Shown here in pieces: positions 1 to 14,241 of a stretch of 14,241 nucleotides of DNA (the stretch's first letter is position 1; the number at the start of each line of letters is the position of its first letter). The stretch comes from a virus. The stretch lies in IMG/VR virus record IMGVR_UViG_3300007162_000002, one strand, 5' to 3'. A program made the position numbers and the translations under genes. Under the pieces are notes generated by a model. It was not told the DNA's origin and did not search any database. It saw only the letters and a program-made list of their open reading frames with translations.

Positions 1-120
1 AATCCTAACGCTCTTGTTTTTGCTGATCCAATGTTAGTAACAAATTCTGAATTTCCTACCCCTACAAATGGCATTGCTGAAATTATAGTTTCTCCAGCAG
101 CAACAGCAAAAGCCTACATG
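1..120. repeat. Terminal direct repeat, copy 1 (identical to 14122..14241). Circular-genome or assembly overlap.
   Basis: A base-by-base reading of 1..120 matches 14122..14241. The offset is 14121, which is divisible by 3, so the long ORF frame is preserved across the junction. Confidence 0.95.
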
Positions 121-3100
121 TATTATCTACCATTAGTTCCACTAGGTGTTGGAACTGCAAGTGGTGTTTCAAGATATACAAATGTATATCATAGAGTATT
201 ATATTCATTAAATTCTCACACAGTAAACCACGTTGATCAAGAAACAGATTCTTACTGGTTAACAGTTCCAGATACTAGTGAAGGAAACATTAGTTACATT
301 CAACAAAGAACTCCCGCAGGATCAACAATTAGACAACCAATATATTTACATTGGTTTTCTTTTGCTAAATCAAATGCAAATTATGCTAGTTTTATTAATC
401 TTGGTGTTGGACCTGTTTTTGCTGGTGATCAAGCAGGCAGCCAAGTAGTAAAAGTGCCACTTAGAGTTGGAAACATATCTTATAGAGGAAATACTGATTA
501 TATTCAATATCCAAGTAGTGGATTTGCAACTAAACCATTTAATTATGAAGATACTGGACCTGGAAACACTTGGCAATTTAAATTTGATGGAGAATCATAT
601 TTAAGAATACCTGAAGCAGGTCAAAGCGATTATGGTACTTATTTACAAAATTATATGACTGGCTCATATTATGGATCTTACGAAATGACAATTAGAACTG
701 ATCAAAACAATTGTGTTTTAGGTTCTGTTAGCCAAAGCATAAAAGCAACAGTAGATGGAACAGATATTTTTTCTTCAATACATTCAAGACCTTCTTCAAA
801 AGATAGTGAATTTGTTCAAGCAGAAATAAATAGCATTAGAACTGAAAGTCCATATACTACTTATACTGATAGATATCATAATAGAACATTAGAATATGCA
901 TATTTAGATGAAGGCGATTATATAAATTATGCTTCTAGTGATCAAGGTAGAAATTATGGCGACATTAGAATTGTAGATGGAAAAATAGCATTTTATCACA
1001 AAGATAGACTTAGTGGTGTAGAAACTTTAGTTTTAGGAACTACTTTAATAAATGATTTAAACAATCATCATATTATTGTAAATAGAACTGTTGATGGATT
1101 TGGCAATATGAATCAAGCAGATAAAAATAAAAAATCAAGATTAGAATTGTGGGTAGATGGTAATTTAGAAGCAATTTCTTATGAAATTAATGACAAAATT
1201 TGGTTAAATAGATTTTCATTTTTAGGAACTGGTTGGTCATTAGAAAAAAGCGGAAATGCTGAAAATGGTGAAGTAGTTACATTTAGACCAGTGTTTGATG
1301 AAAGCCAAGTATTTACTGGCTATATGCAAGATTACATTTGCAGAAGTAATAGACCATTAACAGAAATTGAAATTCAAAGATTGGCTCGTGCTAGATTTGA
1401 AATAATTGCTAAAAAAACAGATCCAATAATTGCTTCATCATCTATGCCTAACGCTACAGTTACAACAAATGCAAAAACTATATTAAGACTATATTGGGAT
1501 ATAGATGAAACTAGACAAAATGGTTTAAGTTTTACAAATAACAATTACAACATTTATACTTACAATGTTTTAAAAACTACATACAATAAACCATCAGAGT
1601 TATTTAATTTAGATCAAAACTTTAAAAATAAATTGCAAGAATTAGAAGAGGTAAGTGCAATAACTAATGATTATGTATACCTAAGCGACCCTTCTGTATT
1701 TTTAATTGATCCAGGCAATGTTGCAAATCAATTTGCATTAGGCAGTGAATTAGTTACAACTACAAGACCAAGGAAATATCATCAAGAATTTTTAGTAGAT
1801 GGAGTTATTATAAACACTGGCGATAGATTTGCTGTAACTGGTCAAACAGATCCTAGGCAAAATGGTTTATATGTATACAATGGAAGAGGAAAACCAGCAT
1901 TAAGAACAACTGATTCAAATACTGCATCTAAATTAACTAATTGTTATTTTTATGTAAGAAATGGTAATACAAATAAAAATACTTATTGGACATGCGTTTC
2001 TGAAAATATAACAAAAAGAATAGAGGCTGGATTTGGAAACTTAAGAGGAAAAAATTCTCCTTTAATATTTAAACAAATATATGATACAGAGATAACAGAA
2101 TCTTCTCCAATATATGATGATTATTATAGAAATGGAATTGCAAAAACTCCTAGATTTATAGATGTAAATAATGATATTGAATTTGATTATGACATTATTA
2201 CATTTATTAACTATCCAACAAATAGTAATGAGTTGTTAGAATCAATTCCTGGTTATGACAAACAATATGTAAGCAATCTTTATAAAGACTTTATTAATAA
2301 TTTAATTACTGCTGCTGCAAATGGAAAAAATATATTTGTAAACAGTCCAATGCTTACACAAGATTTAGGAATAGCAACAAATGTAGTAAATGTTCCTCAA
2401 ACTTTTGACACAAACGATACAAAAAGTCAATCTGAAAACTTATTTGATTTAACAACTTCTGGATCTATTCATTTTGATAATTACAGAAATAATAAATATC
2501 AAGTTGTAAACACATTGTCTGGTTTAACAAATCAATCAACATATATTATGACAGATTTTGTTAACTATATACCAGAACAATCTTGGTTAAATGATCAATA
2601 TCACATAAAATATACAAATAAAACAAGCGGTTTATCAATAAATGATGAATATATAATTCCAACTTTGCCAGTTAGGTCTGCACAACTTAATTTAATAAAA
2701 TCTAACAATCAAATTGGATCAAAAGATATATTTGGAGTTTTAGGTTCAAACATAATAGTTGGAACACCAATAACAACTTTTGGTCAAAATTATTGGGTTA
2801 ATAATACATTAACTTCAAATCCATATAAAAATTATGTAACAACTATTGCTGTAAATTCTGGATCTGTAGTAAAAGGTATTACTATAACTGGTAAAATATT
2901 TGTTAATTTAGTAGAAGATGGATTAACTGCTGGCAGAGAAGATTATAATTATGCAATTTTACAAGACGTTCCAAATACTCAAGAAACTGCTGCTAAAAGA
3001 CTTTGGCAATATTCAACCAGTCGTTTAAGAAAAAATAAAAAATATGTTCTTGAAGAAGAAGCCTACAACATTCAAAGACTTCCAAGCAATTCTGGTGGAG

Positions 3101-3279
3101 GTCCTATAGTTCAAATGCCAACAAACATTACCGATGGAACTATTAGGAATAATTATGATATAGAAAATGGTAATGCTTATTCAACAGAATATAATAATGT
3201 TGAAAATGAATTATATACCACAATAAAAGTTCCGTGTTTAAGTATGTCTTACATGGGATTAAAATGGTTAGGGGGTTAA
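1..3279 (+). CDS. Giant multidomain virion (tail or receptor-binding?) protein, C-terminal 1092 codons. Continuation of 12319..14241 across the circular junction.
   Basis: Frame 1 is open from base 1 to TAA 3277..3279 and is the same frame as the ORF entering from 12319. The combined ORF is 5082 nt / 1693 aa. There is a LamG/ConA-like signature at about 577..1401 (FKFDGESYLRIPE ... RLELWVDGNLEA ... FTGYMQDY). There is a tail-fibre-like motif at about 1819..1998 (GDRFAVTGQTDPRQNGLYVY...RTTD...YFYVRNG...TYWT). Confidence 0.8.
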   Translation, partial: NPNALVFADPMLVTNSEFPTPTNGIAEIIVSPAATAKAYMYYLPLVPLGVGTASGVSRYTNVYHRVLYSLNSHTVNHVDQETDSYWLTVPDTSEGNISYIQQRTPAGSTIRQPIYLHWFSFAKSNANYASFINLGVGPVFAGDQAGSQVVKVPLRVGNISYRGNTDYIQYPSSGFATKPFNYEDTGPGNTWQFKFDGESYLRIPEAGQSDYGTYLQNYMTGSYYGSYEMTIRTDQNNCVLGSVSQSIKATVDGTDIFSSIHSRPSSKDSEFVQAEINSIRTESPYTTYTDRYHNRTLEYAYLDEGDYINYASSDQGRNYGDIRIVDGKIAFYHKDRLSGVETLVLGTTLINDLNNHHIIVNRTVDGFGNMNQADKNKKSRLELWVDGNLEAISYEINDKIWLNRFSFLGTGWSLEKSGNAENGEVVTFRPVFDESQVFTGYMQDYICRSNRPLTEIEIQRLARARFEIIAKKTDPIIASSSMPNATVTTNAKTILRLYWDIDETRQNGLSFTNNNYNIYTYNVLKTTYNKPSELFNLDQNFKNKLQELEEVSAITNDYVYLSDPSVFLIDPGNVANQFALGSELVTTTRPRKYHQEFLVDGVIINTGDRFAVTGQTDPRQNGLYVYNGRGKPALRTTDSNTASKLTNCYFYVRNGNTNKNTYWTCVSENITKRIEAGFGNLRGKNSPLIFKQIYDTEITESSPIYDDYYRNGIAKTPRFIDVNNDIEFDYDIITFINYPTNSNELLESIPGYDKQYVSNLYKDFINNLITAAANGKNIFVNSPMLTQDLGIATNVVNVPQTFDTNDTKSQSENLFDLTTSGSIHFDNYRNNKYQVVNTLSGLTNQSTYIMTDFVNYIPEQSWLNDQYHIKYTNKTSGLSINDEYIIPTLPVRSAQLNLIKSNNQIGSKDIFGVLGSNIIVGTPITTFGQNYWVNNTLTSNPYKNYVTTIAVNSGSVVKGITITGKIFVNLVEDGLTAGREDYNYAILQDVPNTQETAAKRLWQYSTSRLRKNKKYVLEEEAYNIQRLPSNSGGGPIVQMPTNITDGTIRNNYDIENGNAYSTEYNNVENELYTTIKVPCLSMSYMGLKWLGG

Positions 3280-4019: not shown

Positions 4020-4535
4020 ATGTTTGGTGCATCTTACTTGGTTCGATTTATAGGAAGAACTACTGCTAGAAGATTAGCAAGATATATATCTAGAGATTTT
4101 TTTAGAAGAATTAGAGGTTCTTTAGGTTCTTACGTAGATGATTTTTTAGCATCTGAAAGTGCTGAAGAATTTGGTCAGGCTATTATTGCCGCTTCTATTG
4201 TAGAAGCAATAGGTGTAATGTCTACTATGGTAGTTAACGCTGGTATGGAATCAATTTTTGAAGATTATGTAGTTCCAGCCTTTGAAGGCATAGAAATTAG
4301 TCCAGAAGATTGTGATCCAGAACAAGTTTATAACGATATACCTGCAGAATATTTAGAATTTATGTCTGATATGGTGTCAGAAGGGGTTTCTATAGTTGAA
4401 GCCGCAAAAGAAGAAGCCTTAGAAATAGCAGAATTTGCTTCTCTTTCTGGCGTAAAAGTAGGTGCTGGTATGTCAAATCAAGGCATAGGTGAAGGAATAG
4501 GTGGAGGAGAAGACTTTGATGGTGAAGACGATTAG
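4020..4535 (+). CDS. Hypothetical protein (171 aa) with a basic N-terminus, a hydrophobic centre and an acidic Gly-rich C-terminus.
   Basis: ATG 4020 is preceded by GGAGTAGGA. The N-terminus is RFIGRTTARRLARYISRDFFRRIR. The hydrophobic stretch is AIIAASIVEAIGVMSTMVVNAGM. The C-terminus is GIGEGIGGGEDFDGEDD. Confidence 0.65.
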   Translation: MFGASYLVRFIGRTTARRLARYISRDFFRRIRGSLGSYVDDFLASESAEEFGQAIIAASIVEAIGVMSTMVVNAGMESIFEDYVVPAFEGIEISPEDCDPEQVYNDIPAEYLEFMSDMVSEGVSIVEAAKEEALEIAEFASLSGVKVGAGMSNQGIGEGIGGGEDFDGEDD

Positions 4536-4538
4536 ACC

Positions 4539-4566
4539 TTGACAGTTGTCCACCGTATGGTATAAT
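4539..4566 (+). promoter_or_regulatory. Near-consensus sigma-70/sigma-A promoter for the rep gene.
   Basis: TTGACA at 4539..4544, a 16-nt spacer, then TGgTATAAT (TG 4558..4559, TATAAT 4561..4566). It lies immediately after the stop of the upstream gene and 28 nt before the rep ATG. The spacer contains an iteron copy. Confidence 0.8.
4544..4552 (+). repeat. Iteron copy (AGTTGTCCA) inside the rep promoter spacer.
   Basis: Exact match to the 9-mer repeated at 4889, 4910, 4931, 4952 and 5132. Confidence 0.8.
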
Positions 4567-4593
4567 AGTAGTACACAAGTAGAGAGGTGTAAT

Positions 4594-5265
4594 ATGAATC
4601 ATCATTCATTTAGAATGTTAATTAAAGACATTCCTAGCAATATATTAAAAAATAATAATATAAATCCAGCACATTTTAAAGCAGTTTGCTTTATTTTGTC
4701 TATGTATGGCAGTTACGAAACAGGCACAAGCGTATTTCCATCTTGGCTTACTGTGGCTAAAGAGGCTGGTGTTGATAGAAAAACTGGTATGAAAGTAAGA
4801 GATTTTTTGCTTAAATACAATATTTTAACTCCTATAGGTAAAAGATTAAAGAATGTATCAGAATATAAATTCTCTGATCCATCAGATGAGTTGTCCATTA
4901 TGATGAATAAGTTGTCCACTTTAGACATGCAGTTGTCCACTTTACCAAATCAGTTGTCCAGTATTGATGGACACAATAGTATTATAGATACTACTATAGA
5001 TAGTATTAATTATATTATTAAAGAAGATTTAAAAGAAGAAAAAAATCAAGGGGTAGATTATTCTTTGATTAATAATTTAAATACCCTTGATTATGAATTA
5101 ATAGATTGGGATGATGAATCCGAAGATGACCAGTTGTCCAATTTAGACTACCCAGATGAGGAATTAGATAAAGTCTTTCAAGAAGACTACCAAAATTCGG
5201 GGGTAGAAAAGAATAAAGAATTAGAAGATATGATGAATAGTTACTTTACCTTTGGAAAGATATAA
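4594..5265 (+). CDS. Replication initiator / origin-binding protein: winged-HTH N-terminus and acidic C-terminus.
   Basis: ATG 4594 is preceded by GAGAGGTG (4582..4589). HTH-like segment SWLTVAKEAGVDRKTGMKVRDFLLKYNIL. The iteron array lies inside the linker coding region, and the C-terminal half is acidic. The TTG at 4546 in the track falls inside the promoter and is unlikely. Confidence 0.6.
   Translation: MNHHSFRMLIKDIPSNILKNNNINPAHFKAVCFILSMYGSYETGTSVFPSWLTVAKEAGVDRKTGMKVRDFLLKYNILTPIGKRLKNVSEYKFSDPSDELSIMMNKLSTLDMQLSTLPNQLSSIDGHNSIIDTTIDSINYIIKEDLKEEKNQGVDYSLINNLNTLDYELIDWDDESEDDQLSNLDYPDEELDKVFQEDYQNSGVEKNKELEDMMNSYFTFGKI
4889..4960 (+). repeat. Iteron array: 4 direct copies of AGTTGTCCA with exact 21-bp spacing (putative ori).
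   Basis: Copies start at 4889, 4910, 4931 and 4952. They are read in frame as xLS(I/T/S). A markedly AT-rich tract follows (about 4961..5045). Confidence 0.85.
5132..5140 (+). repeat. Sixth iteron copy (AGTTGTCCA).
   Basis: Exact 9-mer in the same orientation, preceded by C as in three other copies. Confidence 0.75.
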
Positions 5266-5435
5266 TGACTAAATTATTTATTGATGAAACTAGAAATTAT
5301 TATGTATTTGTTTGTCCAAAAGATGGAGAAATTGATATAGTATATACTGAAGAATTAGACAAACCTATTGGATCATATTTTCATCCAACATGTAAAACTG
5401 AATGTGACCTACTAGAACTAGATTGGGTATTATAA
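5265..5435 (+). CDS. Small hypothetical protein (56 aa) with a Cys/His cluster.
   Basis: Not in the ORF track, presumably because it is too short. ATG 5265 overlaps the rep stop (TAATG). The frame is open to TAA 5433..5435. The protein MTKLFIDETRNYYVFVCPKDGE...HPTCKTEC carries C-x22-H-x2-C-x3-C. Confidence 0.5.
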   Translation: MTKLFIDETRNYYVFVCPKDGEIDIVYTEELDKPIGSYFHPTCKTECDLLELDWVL

Positions 5436-6266: not shown

Positions 6267-6454
6267 TGGTAAATAAATGGTATTGGAAGAATAAAATGAG
6301 TAAATATGTAGGGACCGCCGCAAGTGTGTGTCTTAATCCTAAAAACCCTGGTTCATGCTTAAATTTGAGGGTATATAAATGTAAAGATATATGTAATTTT
6401 GTTAATAATAGTAAATATGATTATTATATGAATAAATCAAGGATAAGTTTATAA
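6266..6454 (+). CDS. Small hypothetical protein (62 aa) with four Cys.
   Basis: ATG 6266 overlaps the upstream TAA (TAATG). An alternative start at ATG 6296 follows GGAAGA. Confidence 0.45.
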   Translation: MVNKWYWKNKMSKYVGTAASVCLNPKNPGSCLNLRVYKCKDICNFVNNSKYDYYMNKSRISL

Positions 6455-6462
6455 GGAGATAT

Positions 6463-6954
6463 ATGGGATATAGTAAATATAATGAAGATCAAATAGAAGA
6501 ATTTATTTCTACCGCCGATGAAATGGGCCTTGGGCCAGCAATCCGCTATTTAGGCTATCCAGGCTCTTATCATACAGCCAAGAAGTTTTATACACAAAGA
6601 GGATTAGATCTTCCTACCCCCGATAGTTTGGCGGTACTGGCAAGAAATTTAGGTATATTTTATACTGATAAAGAAAAGATAGTAGCAGCACAAGCAGTAT
6701 TAGATAGATGCTTTGAAAAACTAATGGAAGATAGTCTTAATAGTGAAGAATTAAATAAATTATCAAATGCTGTTCATAAAGCAATACAAACTATTAATCT
6801 AATAGAAGGAAAATCTACTAATATTAATGAAAATAGATCTAAAGATGGTACAGATCTAGCATTAGTTGATATGATTAATGAAGCAAAGATTAAAAATAAT
6901 GAAATGAAAGAAAGAATTATAAATAAATCTATTGACAAGGTAAATAATATATGA
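6463..6954 (+). CDS. Putative terminase small subunit.
   Basis: 163 aa, with an AAGGAG ribosome binding site at 6453..6458. It sits upstream of the large terminase. The N-terminus is HTH-like (EEFISTADEMGLGPAIRYLGYPGSYHTAKKFY) and the C-terminus is coiled-coil-like. The call rests on position and size only. Confidence 0.5.
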   Translation: MGYSKYNEDQIEEFISTADEMGLGPAIRYLGYPGSYHTAKKFYTQRGLDLPTPDSLAVLARNLGIFYTDKEKIVAAQAVLDRCFEKLMEDSLNSEELNKLSNAVHKAIQTINLIEGKSTNINENRSKDGTDLALVDMINEAKIKNNEMKERIINKSIDKVNNI

Positions 6955-7051: not shown

Positions 7052-7261
7052 ATGACTCCAGACATGATAACTGCTATAGGGGCAATAGTTCTTGGCATTT
7101 TAGGTGGTTTTTGGGCCTTTATGAGGTATCTGGTGACCAAGTTCTTATCAGAGTTAAAACCTAATGGTGGTTCTAGTTTAGTTGATAAAGTAGATAGATT
7201 AGAAAAAAGAATTGATGATATATATATTATATTAATTGAAAAGAAAACTAGGAGAAAATGA
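7052..7261 (+). CDS. Single-pass membrane protein (69 aa), holin-like topology.
   Basis: N-terminal TM segment ITAIGAIVLGILGGFWAFMRYLV. The tail is charged and ends KKTRRK. The stop overlaps the terL start (ATGA at 7258..7261). Confidence 0.65.
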   Translation: MTPDMITAIGAIVLGILGGFWAFMRYLVTKFLSELKPNGGSSLVDKVDRLEKRIDDIYIILIEKKTRRK

Positions 7262-8757
7262 GAGCAGAAGATATAATATCAAAGGTTCCAGTTGAACTAT
7301 TAACTGTCAAAGAAGGCAGAATAGAATTAACTAAGTATGATCCTTTATTATTTGCTTTAGTTTATTTGCCTCATCATTTAAAAAATTCTAAGAATGAGAT
7401 TACCCTTTCCGAGTTCCATGTTGATTTAGCGGAGTTTGGGAAATCTTGGATAGTCCCGCCGACTTATCCGAAGCAACATAGGGATGCGTTTATTGCCCCT
7501 AGGGAATCTGGAAAGAGTACATGGGTCTTTCTAATTCTTCCTTTGTGGGCTGCTGCTCATAATCACGTAAAGTTTATTGCAGCCTTTTCAGATGCTGCTT
7601 CCCAAGCCGAAACTCATCTGCTAACATTTAAGAATGAATTGGACACTAATGAATATTTACAAAGCGATTATCCAGAGATGTGTAAGCCTAAGATGGTATC
7701 TACAACAGGTAGGGCGTTGGCTAACAACTCATGGAGAATTGTCCAATCAAATGATTTTATTTTTGATGCTAATGGTATTGATACTAACTCATTAGGTAAA
7801 AAGGTATTTGGTCAAAGACCAGATCTTATTATTTTAGATGATATTGAAAAAGGCGAAAAGAACTATTCTGAGTATCAGGCTGGACAACAGTTAAATACAG
7901 TCTTTGATGATATTGCTCCTATGAACATATATTCTAGGATGATTTTTGTTGGAACTACAACTATGCCTAATTCTATTATGGATCAATTTAGAAAAAAGGC
8001 TGAAGGTTTTAAAGAAGCAGAATTAGGATGGATAACTGATCAAAATGTAAAAGTTCATTATTATCCAGCAATTATGCAAAATGAAGACGGTTCTGAAAGG
8101 TCTGTTTGGGAAGAAAAGTGGACTTTAGAATGGCTACAAAGCCAAAGACATTTAAGAGACTTTGCTAAAAACTATATGAATAAACCAGTTAACTTAGATG
8201 GTAACTTTTGGGCTAATGAAGATATAATTATAGAAGAAGCAGAAGAGTATGGAAATACTATTATTTCAGTAGATCCAGCAGTAACTAAAAACAAAGTTTC
8301 TGATTATACAGGTATAGCCGTATTGTCAAGAGGCATAGATGCTTTAGGTAATGAAAACATTTACATAAGAGATGCTCAACAAGTTAAATTGTCACCATCT
8401 GATTTATGTGAAAAAATAAAAGACTTGGCAAAAACATATGATGCAGGATTATTATATGTTGAAACTAACCAAGGTGGAGATCTTTGGCAGGATGTGTTTA
8501 AAACTATTCCTATTAAATATAGATCAAAACATCAAAAGTTGTCTAAACAGATTAGGGCTGGAAAAGCCTTAAACTTTTATCAACAAAAGAAAATACGACA
8601 TAATGCTCATTTTCCTGCATTAGAAGAGCAAATGTGGTCTTTTCCAAAAGTGTCACATGATGACGTACTTGACGCTGTAGTCACAGGAGTATTGTATTTC
8701 CTAGACAATAAAGCAGTAAAAGTAATAGCAAGACAATTTAACTATTTAAGGAGTTAA
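7258..8757 (+). CDS. terL: Terminase large subunit.
   Basis: 499 aa. Walker A APRESGKST and Walker B DLIILDDIE. C-terminal RNaseH-like nuclease acidic motifs are present (IISVDPAV, LYVETNQGG, SHDDVLDAV). The portal gene follows immediately. Confidence 0.9.
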   Translation: MRAEDIISKVPVELLTVKEGRIELTKYDPLLFALVYLPHHLKNSKNEITLSEFHVDLAEFGKSWIVPPTYPKQHRDAFIAPRESGKSTWVFLILPLWAAAHNHVKFIAAFSDAASQAETHLLTFKNELDTNEYLQSDYPEMCKPKMVSTTGRALANNSWRIVQSNDFIFDANGIDTNSLGKKVFGQRPDLIILDDIEKGEKNYSEYQAGQQLNTVFDDIAPMNIYSRMIFVGTTTMPNSIMDQFRKKAEGFKEAELGWITDQNVKVHYYPAIMQNEDGSERSVWEEKWTLEWLQSQRHLRDFAKNYMNKPVNLDGNFWANEDIIIEEAEEYGNTIISVDPAVTKNKVSDYTGIAVLSRGIDALGNENIYIRDAQQVKLSPSDLCEKIKDLAKTYDAGLLYVETNQGGDLWQDVFKTIPIKYRSKHQKLSKQIRAGKALNFYQQKKIRHNAHFPALEEQMWSFPKVSHDDVLDAVVTGVLYFLDNKAVKVIARQFNYLRS

Positions 8758-8758
8758 T

Positions 8759-10132
8759 ATGACAGATATAAAAAATGCGTTAGAAAGACTTATAGATCGT
8801 AGAAACGAATATAATCTTGCTCACGTTTACTATGATGGAAATCAAAAAGAATTGTTTCCAAACCAAAAATGGGCAACTATTTTTAGAACAACCGCTAATC
8901 ATTTTAGATTTAATTTTACTAGAACAGTGGTTGATTCAGTTTTAAATAGGTTAGAAATTGCTTCAGTTTTAGCAACAACCGAAGAAGCAGATCAAATTAT
9001 TAATAGAGTTTGGGAATCAAATGATTTAGTGTTAGACGCTAATGAAATTCACAAAAGAGCATTAGTTTATGGAGATGCTTATGCAATTGTATGGACAGAT
9101 GAAAATGGAGAAATTCAAATAAATTACAATTCTCCATTAACAACCGTAGTCGTATACGATACAGAAAATCCAAGAATAAAAAGATTTGGTGCAAAGATGT
9201 GGCAACATTCAGATCCATATGATGCTTTTAATAATAAAGTAATTAGATTAAATATGTATTATCCAGATCGTATTGAAAAATATGAAGCATATGGAGAAGT
9301 AGATACAATAGTTTCATCAACAGCATTTACTTTATTAGAAATTGTTGAAAATCCATGGAACGAAGTTCCAGTATTTCATTTTAGAACATCAAAACAATAT
9401 GGAAGACCAGAACATTACGATGCTTATGGACCACAAGATGCTATCAACAAGTTAATCATTACACATATGAATACAGTTGATTATCAAGGTGCACCTCAAA
9501 GGTACGCACTTGCTGGTGGGGGAACAAATGAATCAGAAATTGTTGATTTTGACGAAACAGAAGAAGCGGTTAATGTTGGAACATTAAAAAATGGACCAGG
9601 AGAACTTTGGTACCTTAAAGGTATAACAAGAGTTGGAGAATTTGCTCCAGCAGATCACAAAGTGTTTACTGAGCCAGTTACAGAATACATTAAGGCAATG
9701 GCTTCATTAACATCAACACCTATTCACTATTTTGATAAAACAGCAGGACAATCTAGTGGTGAATCTTTAAGAACAGCAGAAGCACCTTTAATTAAAAAAA
9801 TACAAGATAGACAAATATCTTTTGGTAGTACATGGAGAGATTTGTTTAGATTTATATTAAAAATTGAAAATCTAGAATCTGAAATTATGACAGGTAATTT
9901 AGATGTTCAAATTAAATGGGTTCAACCAGAAAGTTTAGATACTTTAGACTCATGGGAAGTAGCAGTTAAAAAACGTGTTGTTGGAGTATCTTTGCAACAA
10001 GTTTTATTAGAGATGGGCTATGATTTAGAAGTAGCAAATAGAATTGTTGAAGAAGCAGATGCTGGATTAATGTCTCAAGGCATGAATGCTAGTAATATTG
10101 CTGCTCAACAAGCAGGGCAAAGAATAGAATAA
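8759..10132 (+). CDS. Portal protein (SPP1 gp6-like family by appearance).
   Basis: 457 aa, 1 nt after terL, with an AAGGAG ribosome binding site. N-terminal AHVYYDGNQ motif. Size and position are typical of a portal. Confidence 0.85.
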   Translation: MTDIKNALERLIDRRNEYNLAHVYYDGNQKELFPNQKWATIFRTTANHFRFNFTRTVVDSVLNRLEIASVLATTEEADQIINRVWESNDLVLDANEIHKRALVYGDAYAIVWTDENGEIQINYNSPLTTVVVYDTENPRIKRFGAKMWQHSDPYDAFNNKVIRLNMYYPDRIEKYEAYGEVDTIVSSTAFTLLEIVENPWNEVPVFHFRTSKQYGRPEHYDAYGPQDAINKLIITHMNTVDYQGAPQRYALAGGGTNESEIVDFDETEEAVNVGTLKNGPGELWYLKGITRVGEFAPADHKVFTEPVTEYIKAMASLTSTPIHYFDKTAGQSSGESLRTAEAPLIKKIQDRQISFGSTWRDLFRFILKIENLESEIMTGNLDVQIKWVQPESLDTLDSWEVAVKKRVVGVSLQQVLLEMGYDLEVANRIVEEADAGLMSQGMNASNIAAQQAGQRIE

Positions 10133-10141
10133 GAGGAAAAT

Positions 10142-10597
10142 ATGGAAGAAGAAGTAAATATAGAAAATATGGTTTCTACGGAGATTAAAGATCCTAAAAA
10201 GGTTCTTGATGCTTTAGATAGAGCCAAATCTGATGCTAAAAAGTTCAGAGAAGAAAAAGAAGAACTAAAAAAACAATATGAAAAAGCAGTTGTTGAATTA
10301 AATGATTGGTCTGCAGAATTATTAAAAGAAAGGGTATCTAGAAAATTAGAAAAAGATGGATTACCTAATGCAGATAGATTATTTAAATATCTTGATTTTG
10401 GAAAAATTGGTTTTGATCCTGATAAAGATATAGTTGGATTAGATGAACAAATGGAAGTCCTTAAAGGTGATTTTCCAGAACTTTTTGATCCAAAAATAAG
10501 AGTTGGGGGTAGGGTAAATGCTGCGGCAGACAATCCTGCAAACACTTCTTTATCTGCAACTGAAAAACAAGCAAAATACATATTAGGCAAAATTTAA
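10142..10597 (+). CDS. Scaffolding protein.
   Basis: 151 aa, highly charged and Lys/Glu-rich with a helical character. It lies between the portal and the major capsid gene. The capsid protein lacks a delta domain. Confidence 0.6.
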   Translation: MEEEVNIENMVSTEIKDPKKVLDALDRAKSDAKKFREEKEELKKQYEKAVVELNDWSAELLKERVSRKLEKDGLPNADRLFKYLDFGKIGFDPDKDIVGLDEQMEVLKGDFPELFDPKIRVGGRVNAAADNPANTSLSATEKQAKYILGKI

Positions 10598-10720: not shown

Positions 10721-11626
10721 ATGGCATTAACACGTACAGACTTTACCGAAGCCAATGGTTACATCTTAGAGGAACAAGGTAGCCAAGCAGTTCAAGCAAC
10801 CTTAGTTAACTCTGCAGTTGAATCATTTGCACGTAGAGAAGCAATGGCTTCACGTACTAAATCAGTACCTCGTTTTGTTTCAGATGCAGCAGATGTAGTC
10901 GCAGAAGGCGATGAAATTCCATCAGCAGTAGCAACACTAGACGAAGTAGTATTAACAGCAAAGAAATATGCACAAATTATGTACATCTCTGAGGAAGACG
11001 TAAACGATTCAATCGTAGACGTACTTGCAACATACAAAAGAGAATGGGCATCACGTTGGGCACGTAAATTTGACAACGCAACACTTGCAGTTACAGTGGC
11101 AACAGATGGTACAGACACTGCACCATTTACATCACTATACAGAGCAATTACAACCTCTCCATCAGCAAGTGCAAATCTAATCACAACAGGTGGTGCACTA
11201 TCTTTTGCAGACATTAACAATGCTTTATCAGCAGTTGAATCAAGCGAAAAATTTGATGCAGCAAACACAGTATTTATGGCACATCCAAAAATGCTAGGTC
11301 ACCTTCGTGGAATGATTGACAGCAACAACGATTTGGTTCTTCCAAATCCAATTGCAGCAACACCAGGACAATTATTTGGTTATCCATTAGTTGTTTCTTA
11401 CGGTGCAGCAAAATCTTCAGCAGCAACAGATGCTCCAACAGGAAACGAATTATTAATCGTTGGTAACCGCCAAATGTTAATTAATGGCGTTCGTGGTGGC
11501 GTAGAATCAGTTGTTTCTCGTGATGCAGAATTCGCAAAGGATGGCGTTCTTCTTAAGACTCGCATTCGCAGAGGCTTTGCAGTAGCAGATGCTGGTGCGT
11601 TCGCAATCGTAGAGAAAACGGCATAA
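10721..11626 (+). CDS. Major capsid protein, HK97 fold (Phage_capsid-like).
   Basis: 301 aa. Motifs typical of HK97-family capsid proteins: VAEGDEIP...LTAKKYAQIMYISEEDVNDS...KFDNATL...HPKMLGHLRG. Strong AAAGGAG ribosome binding site. Codon usage is distinct from the rest of the genome. Confidence 0.9.
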   Translation: MALTRTDFTEANGYILEEQGSQAVQATLVNSAVESFARREAMASRTKSVPRFVSDAADVVAEGDEIPSAVATLDEVVLTAKKYAQIMYISEEDVNDSIVDVLATYKREWASRWARKFDNATLAVTVATDGTDTAPFTSLYRAITTSPSASANLITTGGALSFADINNALSAVESSEKFDAANTVFMAHPKMLGHLRGMIDSNNDLVLPNPIAATPGQLFGYPLVVSYGAAKSSAATDAPTGNELLIVGNRQMLINGVRGGVESVVSRDAEFAKDGVLLKTRIRRGFAVADAGAFAIVEKTA

Positions 11627-11642
11627 GGGGGGGGAATAACAC

Positions 11643-12077
11643 ATGGCTTCAAAGTTATATGGTTCCTTCTTACTAAAAGCATTAAATAAGGAAATTGATT
11701 GGGACACTGATACCATTAAGGTAGCACTTCTAACAAGTTCTTATACACCAAACCAAGATACTCACGACTATTTCGATGATGTAGTCGCAAATGAAGTATC
11801 TGGCACAGGATATACTGCAGGTGGAAATACCTTGGCTTCAAAAACTATCACTTATGATGGTGCAACAAACAAGGTTGTTCTTGACGCAGCAGATACTACT
11901 TGGTCAGCAAGTACTATCACAGCACGTTACGCAGTAGTTTATGATGCTTCACCAGCATCCGATGCAACAAGACCAGTAATTGGTTATGTTGACTTTGGTT
12001 CTGATCAATCATCATCTTCAGGTAATTTTACAATCACATGGGATGCAACAGGTATTGTTGTTATTACAGTAGCGTAA
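11643..12077 (+). CDS. Hypothetical virion protein co-expressed with the capsid protein (decoration or auxiliary head protein?).
   Basis: 144 aa, with a GGGGGGG ribosome binding site at 11627..11633. It shares the GC-richer composition of the capsid gene. The sequence pattern IKVALLTSSYTPNQDTHDYFDDV..EVSGTGYTAGGN...ARYAVVYD looks like a conserved phage family that I cannot name. Confidence 0.7.
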   Translation: MASKLYGSFLLKALNKEIDWDTDTIKVALLTSSYTPNQDTHDYFDDVVANEVSGTGYTAGGNTLASKTITYDGATNKVVLDAADTTWSASTITARYAVVYDASPASDATRPVIGYVDFGSDQSSSSGNFTITWDATGIVVITVA

Positions 12078-12096
12078 ATTATATGAATATAAGAGT

Positions 12097-12253
12097 GCAG
12101 GCTAAATCAATTGAATTAATAGCAAAAACTATTAATCCTTTTGTAGTAATTAAATTAAATTATCTTCCTATGGATATAATTAATTACGCAACCATTAGCC
12201 TGCCTCTACTTAACAAAGTTCTTTCAATTGCAGGACATAGCATTTCAGCAATT
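12097..12253. repeat. Cluster of nested inverted repeats (structured RNA or DNA element).
   Basis: GCAGGCTAA at 12097..12105 pairs with TTAGCCTGC at 12195..12203. These enclose ATTAATAG 12115..12122 / CTATTAAT 12129..12136 and GTAATTAA 12146..12153 / TTAATTAC 12180..12187. A further pair is AATTGC 12226..12231 / GCAATT 12248..12253. Confidence 0.6.
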
Positions 12254-12281
12254 AACCCAAAATTTTTAAGAGGTGAAACAG

Positions 12282-12315
12282 TAGCCGTATACGCATAAGC
12301 GTTGCGGCTATTTTT
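12282..12315 (+). terminator. Rho-independent terminator after the capsid mini-operon.
   Basis: A 12-bp stem with one bulge (12282..12294 pairs with 12299..12310) and loop ATAA, followed by TTTTT at 12311..12315. Confidence 0.7.
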
Positions 12316-12318
12316 ATT

Positions 12319-14241
12319 ATGTTAATGAAAAATTGGACTGTAACTGAATATAATCCAGACTATTTTTGGGATTTTGAAGACGCAACAATAGAAAATATGA
12401 CAAGCGATGGGTCTGTTTCTGATCCAACGTTTACAAAAACAAATACTCCAGCAAGATTTGATATATCAGAACAATATTATGGCATGTGGCCATCTGACAA
12501 TGCTTTCTTTAACAATTCAACTGGATTTGTACAAAGTACTAATAGTACACTTGGTGACTATTTAGATAATGGCAATTACGCAATTAACTTTTTTATAGAA
12601 TTTTCAAAACATGGTGTTAGTGGAACAAAAAATCTTTTAGCAATAAACTTTGCAAGCAATTCTTTAGTTTTACAATTATTAGGAACTAGTGCTGGTGCTG
12701 ATGCTTATAAATTAAGAGTTACAAGTGGTGGAAATACTCTTTTAACATCTACTCAACAGCATTGGTCATATGCTGCAAGTGGTGCGGTAGTTAGTGGTGG
12801 ATTTTTAAGCACTCCTACTGGATGGACTGGATTGCGTCCAGCATTTATGATGGTTACATTAAGACAATCTGGTGGCAATATAGAATTATATATAAATGGT
12901 TCTTTAGATGTTTCAACTTCATTTACAGCACCAAGCGGAGCCTTTACTAATTTTAGAATAGGCTCAGATTCCGTAAGTGTTAACTTTCTTATGGATCAAT
13001 TAAGTGTTGCTTCTTCATCTACATATACTGCAACTAATTTAGCAACTTTGTGGGATTTATTTTTATTAGGAGAAATTCCAGTAGATGCAATGACAACAAG
13101 TTCTGCAATTTTTGCTGATCCAACTGTTGTTATTACTAGCCCAGATGTTACTTATGTAGCAGATAGTATGGATGCTAGTTCAGATTTTATAAACCCATTT
13201 CCAGAAATTGCAGAAATTAATCCAGCCGATGTTCTTTTAGCAGATTGTTTATTTAACGATCCTTTAATTTCTATAGAAGAAGATAATTCTGAAAACGAAA
13301 TGACTGCAAGTGCTGAATTTATAGATCCAACAATCATAACAAATTTAATTTTAATAGTTGCAGCAGATCCTGCTCTTGCAAATGCAGAAATGATTGATCC
13401 ACAAGTTGTGGCATCTCAAGATAATAATTTTGTTGCAGATGAATTTTTAGCCTCTGCTGACTCTGGAAATCATTTATATTCTTGGTATCATGTTAGACGT
13501 TTTAATAGAAGAGACAAAATTCCAAGCGGAACAGATGCAATTTATGACATAGTAAATGTTTTTAGTAGTCAAAATTTATGGTTTTATCAAGCACAAATTG
13601 ATGATGATTCAAGAATAACAAGCACTACTCCTTTATATTTTAAACCAGAATTAAGTGGCATTGCAAGTGGATCTGTTGTTAAGGCTTTAATTAAACTTCC
13701 AATTAAAAATTTTAGTGCAACTTCTGGAACTAGCATTCTTGACATGTACAGAACAACTGGTGCTTGGTCATTAAATACAATAATTAATTCAAATCAACCA
13801 GCAGCAAGTTTAGTAACTAATGATTATTCATTTAGTTGGACTTCTGGTGATTTTCATTACATAGATGTTACTGAACTTTACAATAATTTATCATCTAACT
13901 CTAATACAGGTTTTTATATATCGCTTTCAAGTGGCAATCCAGTATACTTTGATTTAGAAAGTTTTGGTCATCAATTTCAATTAGATTTATATCTTAACAC
14001 TCCACCAGTTAATGCAATAATTGCAGCAGACCCTGCTTTGGCAAATGCAGAAGTTACTTTTGGAAATAAACAAGTTTTTGTAGACCCTGCTTTGGCAAAT
14101 GCAGAAATGATGCCAACAACAAATCCTAACGCTCTTGTTTTTGCTGATCCAATGTTAGTAACAAATTCTGAATTTCCTACCCCTACAAATGGCATTGCTG
14201 AAATTATAGTTTCTCCAGCAGCAACAGCAAAAGCCTACATG
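12319..14241 (+). CDS. Giant multidomain virion protein, N-terminal part. It runs off the window end and continues at 121..3279 of the circle.
   Basis: Frame 1 opens after TGA 12274..12276. The first ATG is at 12319 (a second is at 12325), and there is no stop before the window end. There is a LamG/ConA-like signature at about 12364..13070 (NFFIEF...NLLAINF...AFMMVTLRQSGGNIELYINGSL...FRIGSD...MDQLSV). Short xDPxx repeats follow. There is a DNRLRE/CBM96-like beta-sandwich signature at about 13463..14010 (...MYRTTGAWSLNTIINSNQPA...FHYIDVTELYNNL...NTGFYISL). Confidence 0.8.
   Translation, partial: MLMKNWTVTEYNPDYFWDFEDATIENMTSDGSVSDPTFTKTNTPARFDISEQYYGMWPSDNAFFNNSTGFVQSTNSTLGDYLDNGNYAINFFIEFSKHGVSGTKNLLAINFASNSLVLQLLGTSAGADAYKLRVTSGGNTLLTSTQQHWSYAASGAVVSGGFLSTPTGWTGLRPAFMMVTLRQSGGNIELYINGSLDVSTSFTAPSGAFTNFRIGSDSVSVNFLMDQLSVASSSTYTATNLATLWDLFLLGEIPVDAMTTSSAIFADPTVVITSPDVTYVADSMDASSDFINPFPEIAEINPADVLLADCLFNDPLISIEEDNSENEMTASAEFIDPTIITNLILIVAADPALANAEMIDPQVVASQDNNFVADEFLASADSGNHLYSWYHVRRFNRRDKIPSGTDAIYDIVNVFSSQNLWFYQAQIDDDSRITSTTPLYFKPELSGIASGSVVKALIKLPIKNFSATSGTSILDMYRTTGAWSLNTIINSNQPAASLVTNDYSFSWTSGDFHYIDVTELYNNLSSNSNTGFYISLSSGNPVYFDLESFGHQFQLDLYLNTPPVNAIIAADPALANAEVTFGNKQVFVDPALANAEMMPTTNPNALVFADPMLVTNSEFPTPTNGIAEIIVSPAATAKAYM
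13358..13392 (+). repeat. Intragenic repeat encoding (V)AADPALANAEM, copy 1.
   Basis: TTGCAGCAGATCCTGCTCTTGCAAATGCAGAAATG. It differs from copy 2 only at synonymous positions within the shared peptide (GAT/GAC and CTT/TTG). Confidence 0.85.
14021..14055 (+). repeat. Intragenic repeat encoding (I)AADPALANAEV, copy 2.
   Basis: TTGCAGCAGACCCTGCTTTGGCAAATGCAGAAGTT. It lies 663 nt (221 codons, in frame) downstream of copy 1. Confidence 0.85.
14082..14106 (+). repeat. Intragenic repeat encoding VDPALANAE, copy 3.
   Basis: The 25-nt AGACCCTGCTTTGGCAAATGCAGAA is identical to 14028..14052 and lies 54 nt downstream of it. Confidence 0.9.
14122..14241. repeat. Terminal direct repeat, copy 2 (identical to 1..120).
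   Basis: Same as copy 1. It lies inside the open frame that starts at 12319. Confidence 0.95.

Follow-up and report, generated by a model that had tools for sequence, protein, structure and literature searches.

Iterons and an AT-rich tract inside a small gene

The stretch of DNA analysed here, IMG/VR virus record IMGVR_UViG_3300007162_000002 (14,241 nt, called the window throughout), contains between positions 4539 and 5265 a strong promoter and an open reading frame (ORF) of 223 codons whose coding sequence holds an array of short, phased direct repeats (iterons) followed by an AT-rich tract. An earlier reading made from the letters alone (the sequence-only reading) had likened this arrangement to the replication origin of phage lambda and taken the gene product for the protein that binds it. 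The features of the locus are as follows.

4539..4566, + strand: promoter of the putative initiator gene, with TTGACA (4539-4544), 16 nt, TATAAT (4561-4566) and an extended -10 TG
4544..4552, + strand: promoter iteron, covering the last -35 base and the first 8 nt of the spacer
4594..5265, + strand: putative initiator gene, 223 aa, with ATG at 4594 and the ribosome-binding site GAGAGG
4594..4878, + strand: predicted winged helix-turn-helix domain, aa 1-95, with helices at 51-58 and 62-74 and a wing at 79-92
4889..4960, + strand: iteron array, four copies of AGTTGTCCA at exact 21-bp spacing, within ORF 4594..5265
4968..4973, + strand: inverted half-site TGGACA, 7 bp past the last iteron
4974..5045, + strand: AT-rich tract of low stability, the proposed DNA-unwinding element
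5132..5140, + strand: distal iteron, 180 bp 3' of the array, so that the AT-rich tract is flanked by iterons

The 9-mer AGTTGTCCA occurs six times without mismatch in the window (4544, 4889, 4910, 4931, 4952 and 5132), always on the + strand, against an expectation of 0.13, and none of 200 shuffled sequences contained six or more copies. These are the positions that the sequence-only reading had listed, and the 21-bp phase of the four copies in the coding sequence was the same when recomputed. The array iterons translate as (E/K/Q)-L-S in ORF 4594..5265, and the 9-bp core has no dyad symmetry except at the last copy. The start at ATG 4594 agrees with the MNHH start of homologues, while TTG 4546, the start given in the ORF listing, sits inside the promoter. 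The promoter and distal copies lie 345 bp and 180 bp from the array, a near-integral helical phasing in the window; since it is inconsistent across relatives, we make no claim for it.

The AT-rich stretch at 4961..5045 has a GC content of 18.8%, compared to 32% for the window, and ranks 64th of 14157 among 85-mers. By nearest-neighbour energy, the 60 bp immediately 3' of the array form the least stable block of the window, so the description given by the sequence-only reading holds here as well. Inside the tract, 12-bp periodic units run from 4976 to 5023 (ATAGTATTATAG / ATACTACTATAG ...). As a caveat, GC content is still lower at approximately 6370-6440; this segment, just 5' of terS, has the lowest GC of the window (11.7% over 60 bp) and may be a promoter, the edge of a terminal repeat or a packaging region. 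Rfam and tRNA scans were empty, which argues against an RNA element. The zinc-ribbon ORF that follows the putative initiator gene (5265..5435) has iteron-like sequence at its Cys-Pro codons: GTTTGTCCAA at 5310..5319 with an inverted partner 35 nt on (5355..5364).

The repeats are constrained as DNA

Heptads of the form (Q/E/K)LS follow a conserved N-terminal domain of about 95 residues in 82 of 82 homologues. Both the exact 9-mer and its 21-bp phase are kept in ten canonical-iteron lineages with proteins of only 44-57% identity to that of the window; the loss of the phased 9-mers from relatives that retain the protein, which the sequence-only reading had named as telling against it, is not what these lineages show. 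Codon choice at the repeats is strongly skewed. In the genomes of window relatives TTG makes up 13% of Leu codons and TCC 2.9% of Ser codons, yet TTG TCC is found at 39 of 39 (Q/E/K/D)-L-S sites of the canonical-iteron genes, array and distal copies together. By comparison, the sole LS dipeptide of the gene in the variant-iteron locus L013, which is not part of an iteron, is written TTA TCA. The residues flanking the core are likewise bounded by bases, with xAG on its 5' side, for Q, E or K, and Axx on its 3' side, for I, T, N, S, K or R, and each of the few exceptions costs one base of the 9-mer.

Moreover, copies of the motif occur outside the LS frame. L012 and L035 carry an out-of-frame copy 23 bp 5' of the array that is translated x-V-V-Q, and L034 carries one 22 bp 5' of the array that is translated S-C-P. 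L036 has three more exact distal copies in frame 2, and the exact distal copies of L006 and L009 lie past the stop codon, in the zinc-ribbon ORF (10429..10569 in L006, 5454..5585 in L009), again as S-C-P. In the Streptomyces satellite phage MiniFlayer, described below, a 22-bp spacing rotates the repeats through the frames, and they translate as RLSS, VSVLS, SVCPP and QCLSS. The rare codons, the copies in other frames and the conserved phasing of 21-23 bp all point to constraint at the level of DNA, and on these grounds we read the repeats as a DNA element and not as a peptide repeat. The family is thus an unusually clean natural case of one DNA motif kept in all three frames of a coding gene.

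The layout is conserved in aquatic relatives

Relatives occur in lake, freshwater, subsurface, estuarine and marine metagenomes, as contigs 14-15.5 kb long. We compared the layout at 18 aquatic loci, the window included. Across these loci, three to five iterons at 21-23 bp spacing are followed by the TGGACA half-site and then by three or four units of 12 bp on the pattern of AATACTACTATA / GATACTACTAAT. The half-site is kept family-wide as the codons GGA CAY, which specify the near-invariant Gly126 and His127. The 12-bp period of the tract stands out in self-match averaged over 21 loci: 0.54 at lag 12, compared to 0.39-0.44 at the remaining lags to 21 that are multiples of 3, and 0.48 at lag 24. 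In 18 of 18 aquatic loci, the 60 bp past the array belong to the least stable 0-7% of the genome. A distal copy, exact or with one mismatch, lies 160-222 bp downstream in at least eight lineages (the window, L001, L003, L006, L008, L009, L034 and L037).

MiniFlayer gene 13 has the same architecture

MiniFlayer (L039, OQ357865) has in the slot of the putative initiator gene its gene 13 (11911..13017), which encodes a 368-aa protein annotated as hypothetical. Within gene 13, GTCTGTCCT occurs four times at exact 22-bp spacing (12335-12409), once more in inverted orientation at 12262 and again distally at 12624, and a 12-bp periodic ACTACTAA tract lies at 12422-12467. Another exact copy lies upstream of the gene at 11813, 5 nt upstream of a TTGACA hexamer, and the whole phage has nine exact copies against 0.29 expected. 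Gene 13 therefore resembles the window gene in its syntenic slot, its four intragenic iterons with a distal and an upstream copy, and its 12-bp tract, and the two iterons share the core TGTCC. It differs in that its iteron is a 22-bp unit with dyad symmetry, in the greater length of the protein with its conserved C-terminal domain, and in the marginal similarity of the N-terminal domains. No other carrier of gene 13 or of its repeat region was found among 50,697 phage records. The published description of MiniFlayer reports no primase homologues and no obvious replicases, has the phage depend on its helper for replication, and does not mention iterons (PMC10690885).

A complete palindromic iteron, GTCTGTCCTtaaatgaGACAGAC, is also present in the direct terminal repeat of MiniFlayer (100..130 and 16492..16522), 64 nt 5' of terS, which suggests a further site of action for the gene 13 protein, at the packaging or late operon of this phage.

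The encoded protein and its co-variation with the repeat

AlphaFold models aa 1-95 of the window protein as a confident winged helix (predicted local distance difference test, pLDDT, 94), whereas the iteron-encoded segment and the next 50 or so residues are predicted to be disordered, forming a linker. Profile comparisons connect this N-terminal domain with replication initiators. Between 16 and 20 of 30 family members match PHROGs described as 'replication initiation protein' or 'O-like' at 1e-4 to 1e-6, N-terminus to N-terminus, and 10 of the 30 match Pfam HTH_36 weakly. An exhaustive search of 1.84 billion representatives with a family-profile hidden Markov model returned 39 proteins. The distant relatives found in this way match HTH_36 at 1e-25, DnaD_N, and initiator, O-like and DnaD-like-loader PHROGs, the best of these at 1e-31. 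In many of these relatives, the closest included, the domain is succeeded by repeats of their own of 7 aa (21 bp), and these in turn usually by an HN..N motif. A word-indexed protein search with the N-domain profile added no further distant relatives, and PDB sequences searched with a profile yielded nothing above noise. Membership of the N-terminal domain in the HTH_36 and PHROG initiator families thus appears to be transitive through intermediates and not direct. The comparison with initiator winged helices that the sequence-only reading had proposed gives matches for family members and intermediates, and not for the window protein taken alone.

The repeat and the domain also change together. 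In the clade of L013, L029 and L030, all four copies are changed to AGAAGTCCA, the fourth out of frame at 22 bp, and the N-terminal domain has only four positions with residues absent from 77 canonical proteins. Two of these, L52K and M66F, fall at sites that are otherwise 99-100% invariant, one in each helix of the helix-turn-helix; a third, E85S, is in the wing, and the fourth is a variable site. The second case is L040, of the MiniFlayer group, which has an unrelated N-terminal domain and a different iteron, ATACCCCTGCTG..GAAGGGG, in five copies, with a matching copy overlapping the -35 of its own promoter. Between L040 (3046..4071) and L039 (11911..13017), a single block made up of N-terminal domain, iterons and promoter site has been swapped, and the C-terminal domain and the 12-mer tract have been retained. 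This co-variation points to the encoded protein as the reader of the repeat, the two together behaving as an initiator-iteron specificity module.

The promoter iteron is a recurrent addition

Scored against the sigma-70 consensus, the promoter at 4539..4566 matches at 12 of 12 positions, and no other match of at least 11/12 exists on either strand of the whole window. The near-perfect promoter with an iteron in its 16-nt spacer that the sequence-only reading described is therefore real, and the iteron at 4544..4552 is a candidate autorepression site. A copy close to the promoter (at most one mismatch, + strand, no more than 150 nt 5' of the gene) is present in 4 of the 18 aquatic lineages, at -50 in the window and in L037, -69 in L012 and -98 in L001, compared to a background of 0.013 per region (P about 7e-5 for 4/18). 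Upstream copies are also found in MiniFlayer (11813) and L040 (2948). Because only 4 of the 18 aquatic lineages have the promoter copy, autoregulation is not universal, and the distribution suggests a recurrent add-on and not a conserved core function. The autorepression proposed from the sequence thus keeps its site in this lineage and loses its generality.

Other lineages, which lack a promoter iteron, have an inverted repeat around the -35 instead. A TAGTTTAATTAATCATTAG box upstream of the gene is common to L006 (about 9950..9985), L008, L009, L013, L027, L029 and L030. In L027 the inverted repeat AGTGCTTT N9 AAAGCACT brackets the -35, with diverged forms in the other lineages that have the box, and it is probably the operator for a different regulator. 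On the 5' side of the window promoter lies a gene at 4020..4535 whose product has an acidic, Gly-rich tail; here AAGGAATAGGTG, a 12-bp tandem repeat, is present in 2.4 copies (4480..4508), and GC skew is at its highest in this region (about 0.34).

A probable initiator with the origin inside its own gene

Taken together, the constraint on the repeats as DNA, the unstable tract found at every aquatic locus, the co-variation with helix-turn-helix residues and the transitive links to initiator families support the proposal that 4594..5265 encodes an initiator whose origin lies in its own gene. We put at about 0.75 the probability of a lambda-type origin whose iterons lie within the gene encoding its winged-helix initiator. 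As a whole, 4539..5265 is best read as a self-contained cassette for the initiation of replication, belonging to a mini-phage or satellite of the MiniFlayer kind.

The data show the anatomy of the sequence, its DNA-level conservation, the co-variation of repeat and protein, the fold and the remote homology; in the mechanism that we propose, binding, melting, replisome recruitment and repression are the inferred parts. The N-terminal winged helix would be the part of the 223-aa protein that binds the 9-bp core AGTTGTCCA, and the spacing of the four copies by two helical turns would place the bound proteins on one face of the DNA. Together with the distal iteron at 5132 and the inverted TGGACA half-site, the array would then build a nucleoprotein complex that melts the adjoining 12-bp-periodic AT-rich tract (4974..5045), and the opened origin would be handed to the replisome of the host or, as in satellites, of a helper phage. 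The replisome must come from outside, since the scanned ORFs include no helicase, primase or polymerase. The sequence-only reading took the absence of a phage polymerase to mean recruitment of the host replisome; the absence stands for the scanned ORFs, and because the element is a relative of MiniFlayer, the recruited replisome may be that of a helper phage rather than that of the host. In this lineage, the copy in the promoter spacer would let the initiator repress the operon that encodes it, in effect all of the one-strand genome.

Several results weigh against this assignment. Foldseek searches with full-length and domain-only models return generic winged helices (MarR, TubR) at E of about 0.01; the Rep-DNA complex 5kbj ranks 39th with the full-length model (E = 0.011) and falls outside the top 50 with the domain-only model. 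The predicted fold of aa 1-95 thus speaks for a DNA binder and no more, and does not separate an initiator from a regulator. The window protein itself reaches the threshold of no curated family (E = 0.18 for HTH_36) and matches no Pfam family, Phage_rep_O included; its comparison with lambda O by hhalign has a probability of 0.1%. Short family members of about 140-150 aa have no obvious helicase-recruiting domain. The co-variation comprises two independent events only, and the similarity of the window-family N-terminal domain to MiniFlayer gp13 (E = 0.0077-0.013, probability 3-5%) is only suggestive. Finally, cumulative GC skew rises monotonically across the window; because all genes of the window lie on one strand, skew says nothing on the position of an origin.

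Other explanations for the repeats and their reader

The strongest competing explanation, itself unlikely, is that the winged-helix protein is only a transcription factor, such as an early/late switch or an immunity repressor, and the repeats are its operators or roadblocks. The best structural matches are MarR-type regulators, JGI labels some homologues 'GntR family', an iteron copy sits in the only strong promoter of the window, and MiniFlayer has copies at the gene 13 promoter and upstream of terS. However, the promoter copy is missing from 14 of the 18 aquatic lineages, whereas the array and the unstable tract are present in all of them, and three to five sites in the same orientation, two turns apart and beside a 12-mer AT tract, are a hallmark of origins and not of operators. 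In addition, the sequence links of the family lead overwhelmingly to replication initiators.

We consider it more doubtful still that the repeats are bound by a protein of a helper phage or of the host, for example a hijacked initiator, and not by the encoded protein. An element that lacks replisome genes and is kin to helper-dependent satellites could be served in this way, and the core matches a DnaA box at seven of eight bases in three window copies. Against this, the repeat changes along with the helix-turn-helix residues of the element's own protein or with its whole N-terminal domain, and a similar protein or repeat region is found in 0 of the 50,697 phage records. The family consensus, moreover, has A and not C after TCCA, so that the likeness to a DnaA box is not conserved. 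The iteron as a DnaA box (TTGTCCAC vs TTATCCAC) was dropped as a candidate, the family consensus departing from it at further positions.

Slightly less credible again is a centromere-like or packaging-recognition site (partition, pac/cos) to which the winged-helix protein would bind. The Foldseek matches include TubR, a centromere-binding protein with a winged helix, and intragenic repeat arrays are known for pac sites, but no partition NTPase is encoded by any ORF scanned. A packaging site is further opposed by the separate TerS, homologous to that of MiniFlayer, and by the terminal repeats of MiniFlayer (1-1057 and 16393-17449), which are far from its array at 12335, the nearer one by about 4 kb. 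That the repeats only encode a heptad, leucine-zipper-like peptide and have no DNA function, as Leu at every seventh residue and a QLS conserved in 82 of 82 homologues might suggest, is effectively refuted by the exact copies read as SCP or VVQ in other frames and past the stop codon, and is further opposed by the invariant rare codons, the passage of the MiniFlayer repeats through all three frames and the predicted disorder of the segment.

Comparison with known origins

On the initiator-origin reading, the window is close in layout to lambda and its lambdoid relatives. Window and lambda both have four same-orientation iterons about two helical turns apart, in the initiator ORF past the DNA-binding domain, with an AT-rich tract directly downstream, and in both the iteron-encoded segment serves as a linker. 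The annotated ori iterons of lambda, also four, occupy nt 349-433 of gene O at a spacing of 20-24 bp, and the array starts at nt 296 of the window gene compared to nt 349 of gene O. In both, the N-terminal domain and iterons evolve as a unit, separately from the C-terminal part. The window differs from lambda in having no detectable similarity to O, a 9-bp core, no P-like loader and a promoter copy, and many members of its family lack any C-terminal domain. The term 'lambda-ori-like' is thus apt for the architecture, with its phased intragenic iterons and AT tract, and does not extend to the protein family.

Initiators of the RepA_N type, from Gram-positive plasmids and the Vibrio cholerae satellite PLE, also resemble the window protein in that a winged-helix N-terminal domain binds iterons and the C-terminal domain is variable, and in many RepA_N plasmids the origin lies inside repA. 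The window protein has no match to Pfam RepA_N, and 5kbj is not among its top structural matches. Iteron plasmids (pSC101, R6K, P1, F) are similar in their direct repeats of about 22 bp, their adjacent AT-rich unwinding region and their iteron-like site over the rep promoter for autorepression. However, the origins of these plasmids lie between genes, and each of their Rep proteins has a pair of winged-helix domains; the window protein does not show two tandem winged helices of the RepE, pi or RepA type but a single one followed by disorder, and its origin would be intragenic. Among satellites, PLE RepA of Vibrio cholerae is an initiator that binds iterons, has no helicase or primase, and fires only with the machinery of ICP1 (PMC7145576). 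It is the closest precedent in mechanism among satellites, although the PLE origin is in a non-coding region and that of the window would be intragenic.

Implications for satellite viruses

Iterons and an AT-rich tract inside an initiator gene are textbook lambda biology. What is new is their occurrence in widespread uncultured aquatic mini-phages of 14-15 kb and in the same slot of MiniFlayer. At odds that we judge a little better than even, all MiniFlayer-type satellites, which have been described as devoid of replication genes, carry a minimal, modular initiator-origin cassette, composed of a winged helix of about 95 aa, three to five intragenic iterons and a constant 12-mer array, by which they would time and site their own start of replication while borrowing the replisome, and whose domain and iterons, promoter copies among them, are swapped as a unit from lineage to lineage. 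If this is true, the cassette would be an incompatibility or specificity determinant among co-infecting satellites. Confirmation would mean that satellites encode their own origin recognition, refining the dependence implied by the term 'satellite virus'. The finding supplies an origin-and-initiator candidate in a cultured system, and gene 13 with its iterons, in the MindFlayer/MiniFlayer/Streptomyces system, would then offer a tractable handle on the capture of a helper replisome.

Genome context

Other genes of the window are as follows.

6463..6954, + strand: TerS, 33% identical to MiniFlayer TerS (E = 2e-27)
7258..8757, + strand: TerL, best matches MulchRoom and MiniFlayer, 44-54% identical
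8759..10132, + strand: portal
10142..10597, + strand: scaffold
10721..11626, + strand: major capsid protein
11643..12077, + strand: 144-aa protein, 72% identical to MiniFlayer gp6
12319..14241 joined to 1..3279, + strand: giant fibre-like ORF of about 1730 codons; relatives carry Laminin_G_3

Since the giant ORF spans both ends, the window represents the complete genome, about 14.2 kb in length, either closed as a circle or permuted; L015 is the same element with its assembly permuted differently. TerL finds its best matches in two satellite phages of Streptomyces, MulchRoom (14.8 kb) and MiniFlayer (17.4 kb), and the gene order is the same as in MiniFlayer: TerS, TerL, portal, scaffold, capsid, 144-aa protein, giant fibre, adaptor, initiator. 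The window thus shares with MiniFlayer-like elements their homologous syntenic genes, a size of about 14-17 kb and the lack of replisome genes, and the element may be a helper-dependent freshwater satellite virus. The window ORFs scanned gave no hit to a polymerase, helicase, primase or integrase and no recognisable lysis gene, and the element has no P-like helicase-loader gene. Neither the window DNA nor the initiator protein matched any of the 50,697 phage records. No relative turned up among 185,579 species genomes, so that these give no clue to a host or prophage.

In MulchRoom (L038), gene 11 (8158..8427) encodes a small helix-turn-helix protein matching phrog_10724, which is also matched by a few members of the window family and a few of their distant relatives; MulchRoom has no iteron array near gene 11 and no comparable array in its central region. 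Between TerS and TerL of the window, a 69-aa ORF (7052..7261) that matches phrog_9869 has an N-terminal transmembrane segment; it is the only candidate membrane protein of the element, with a possible holin-like function.

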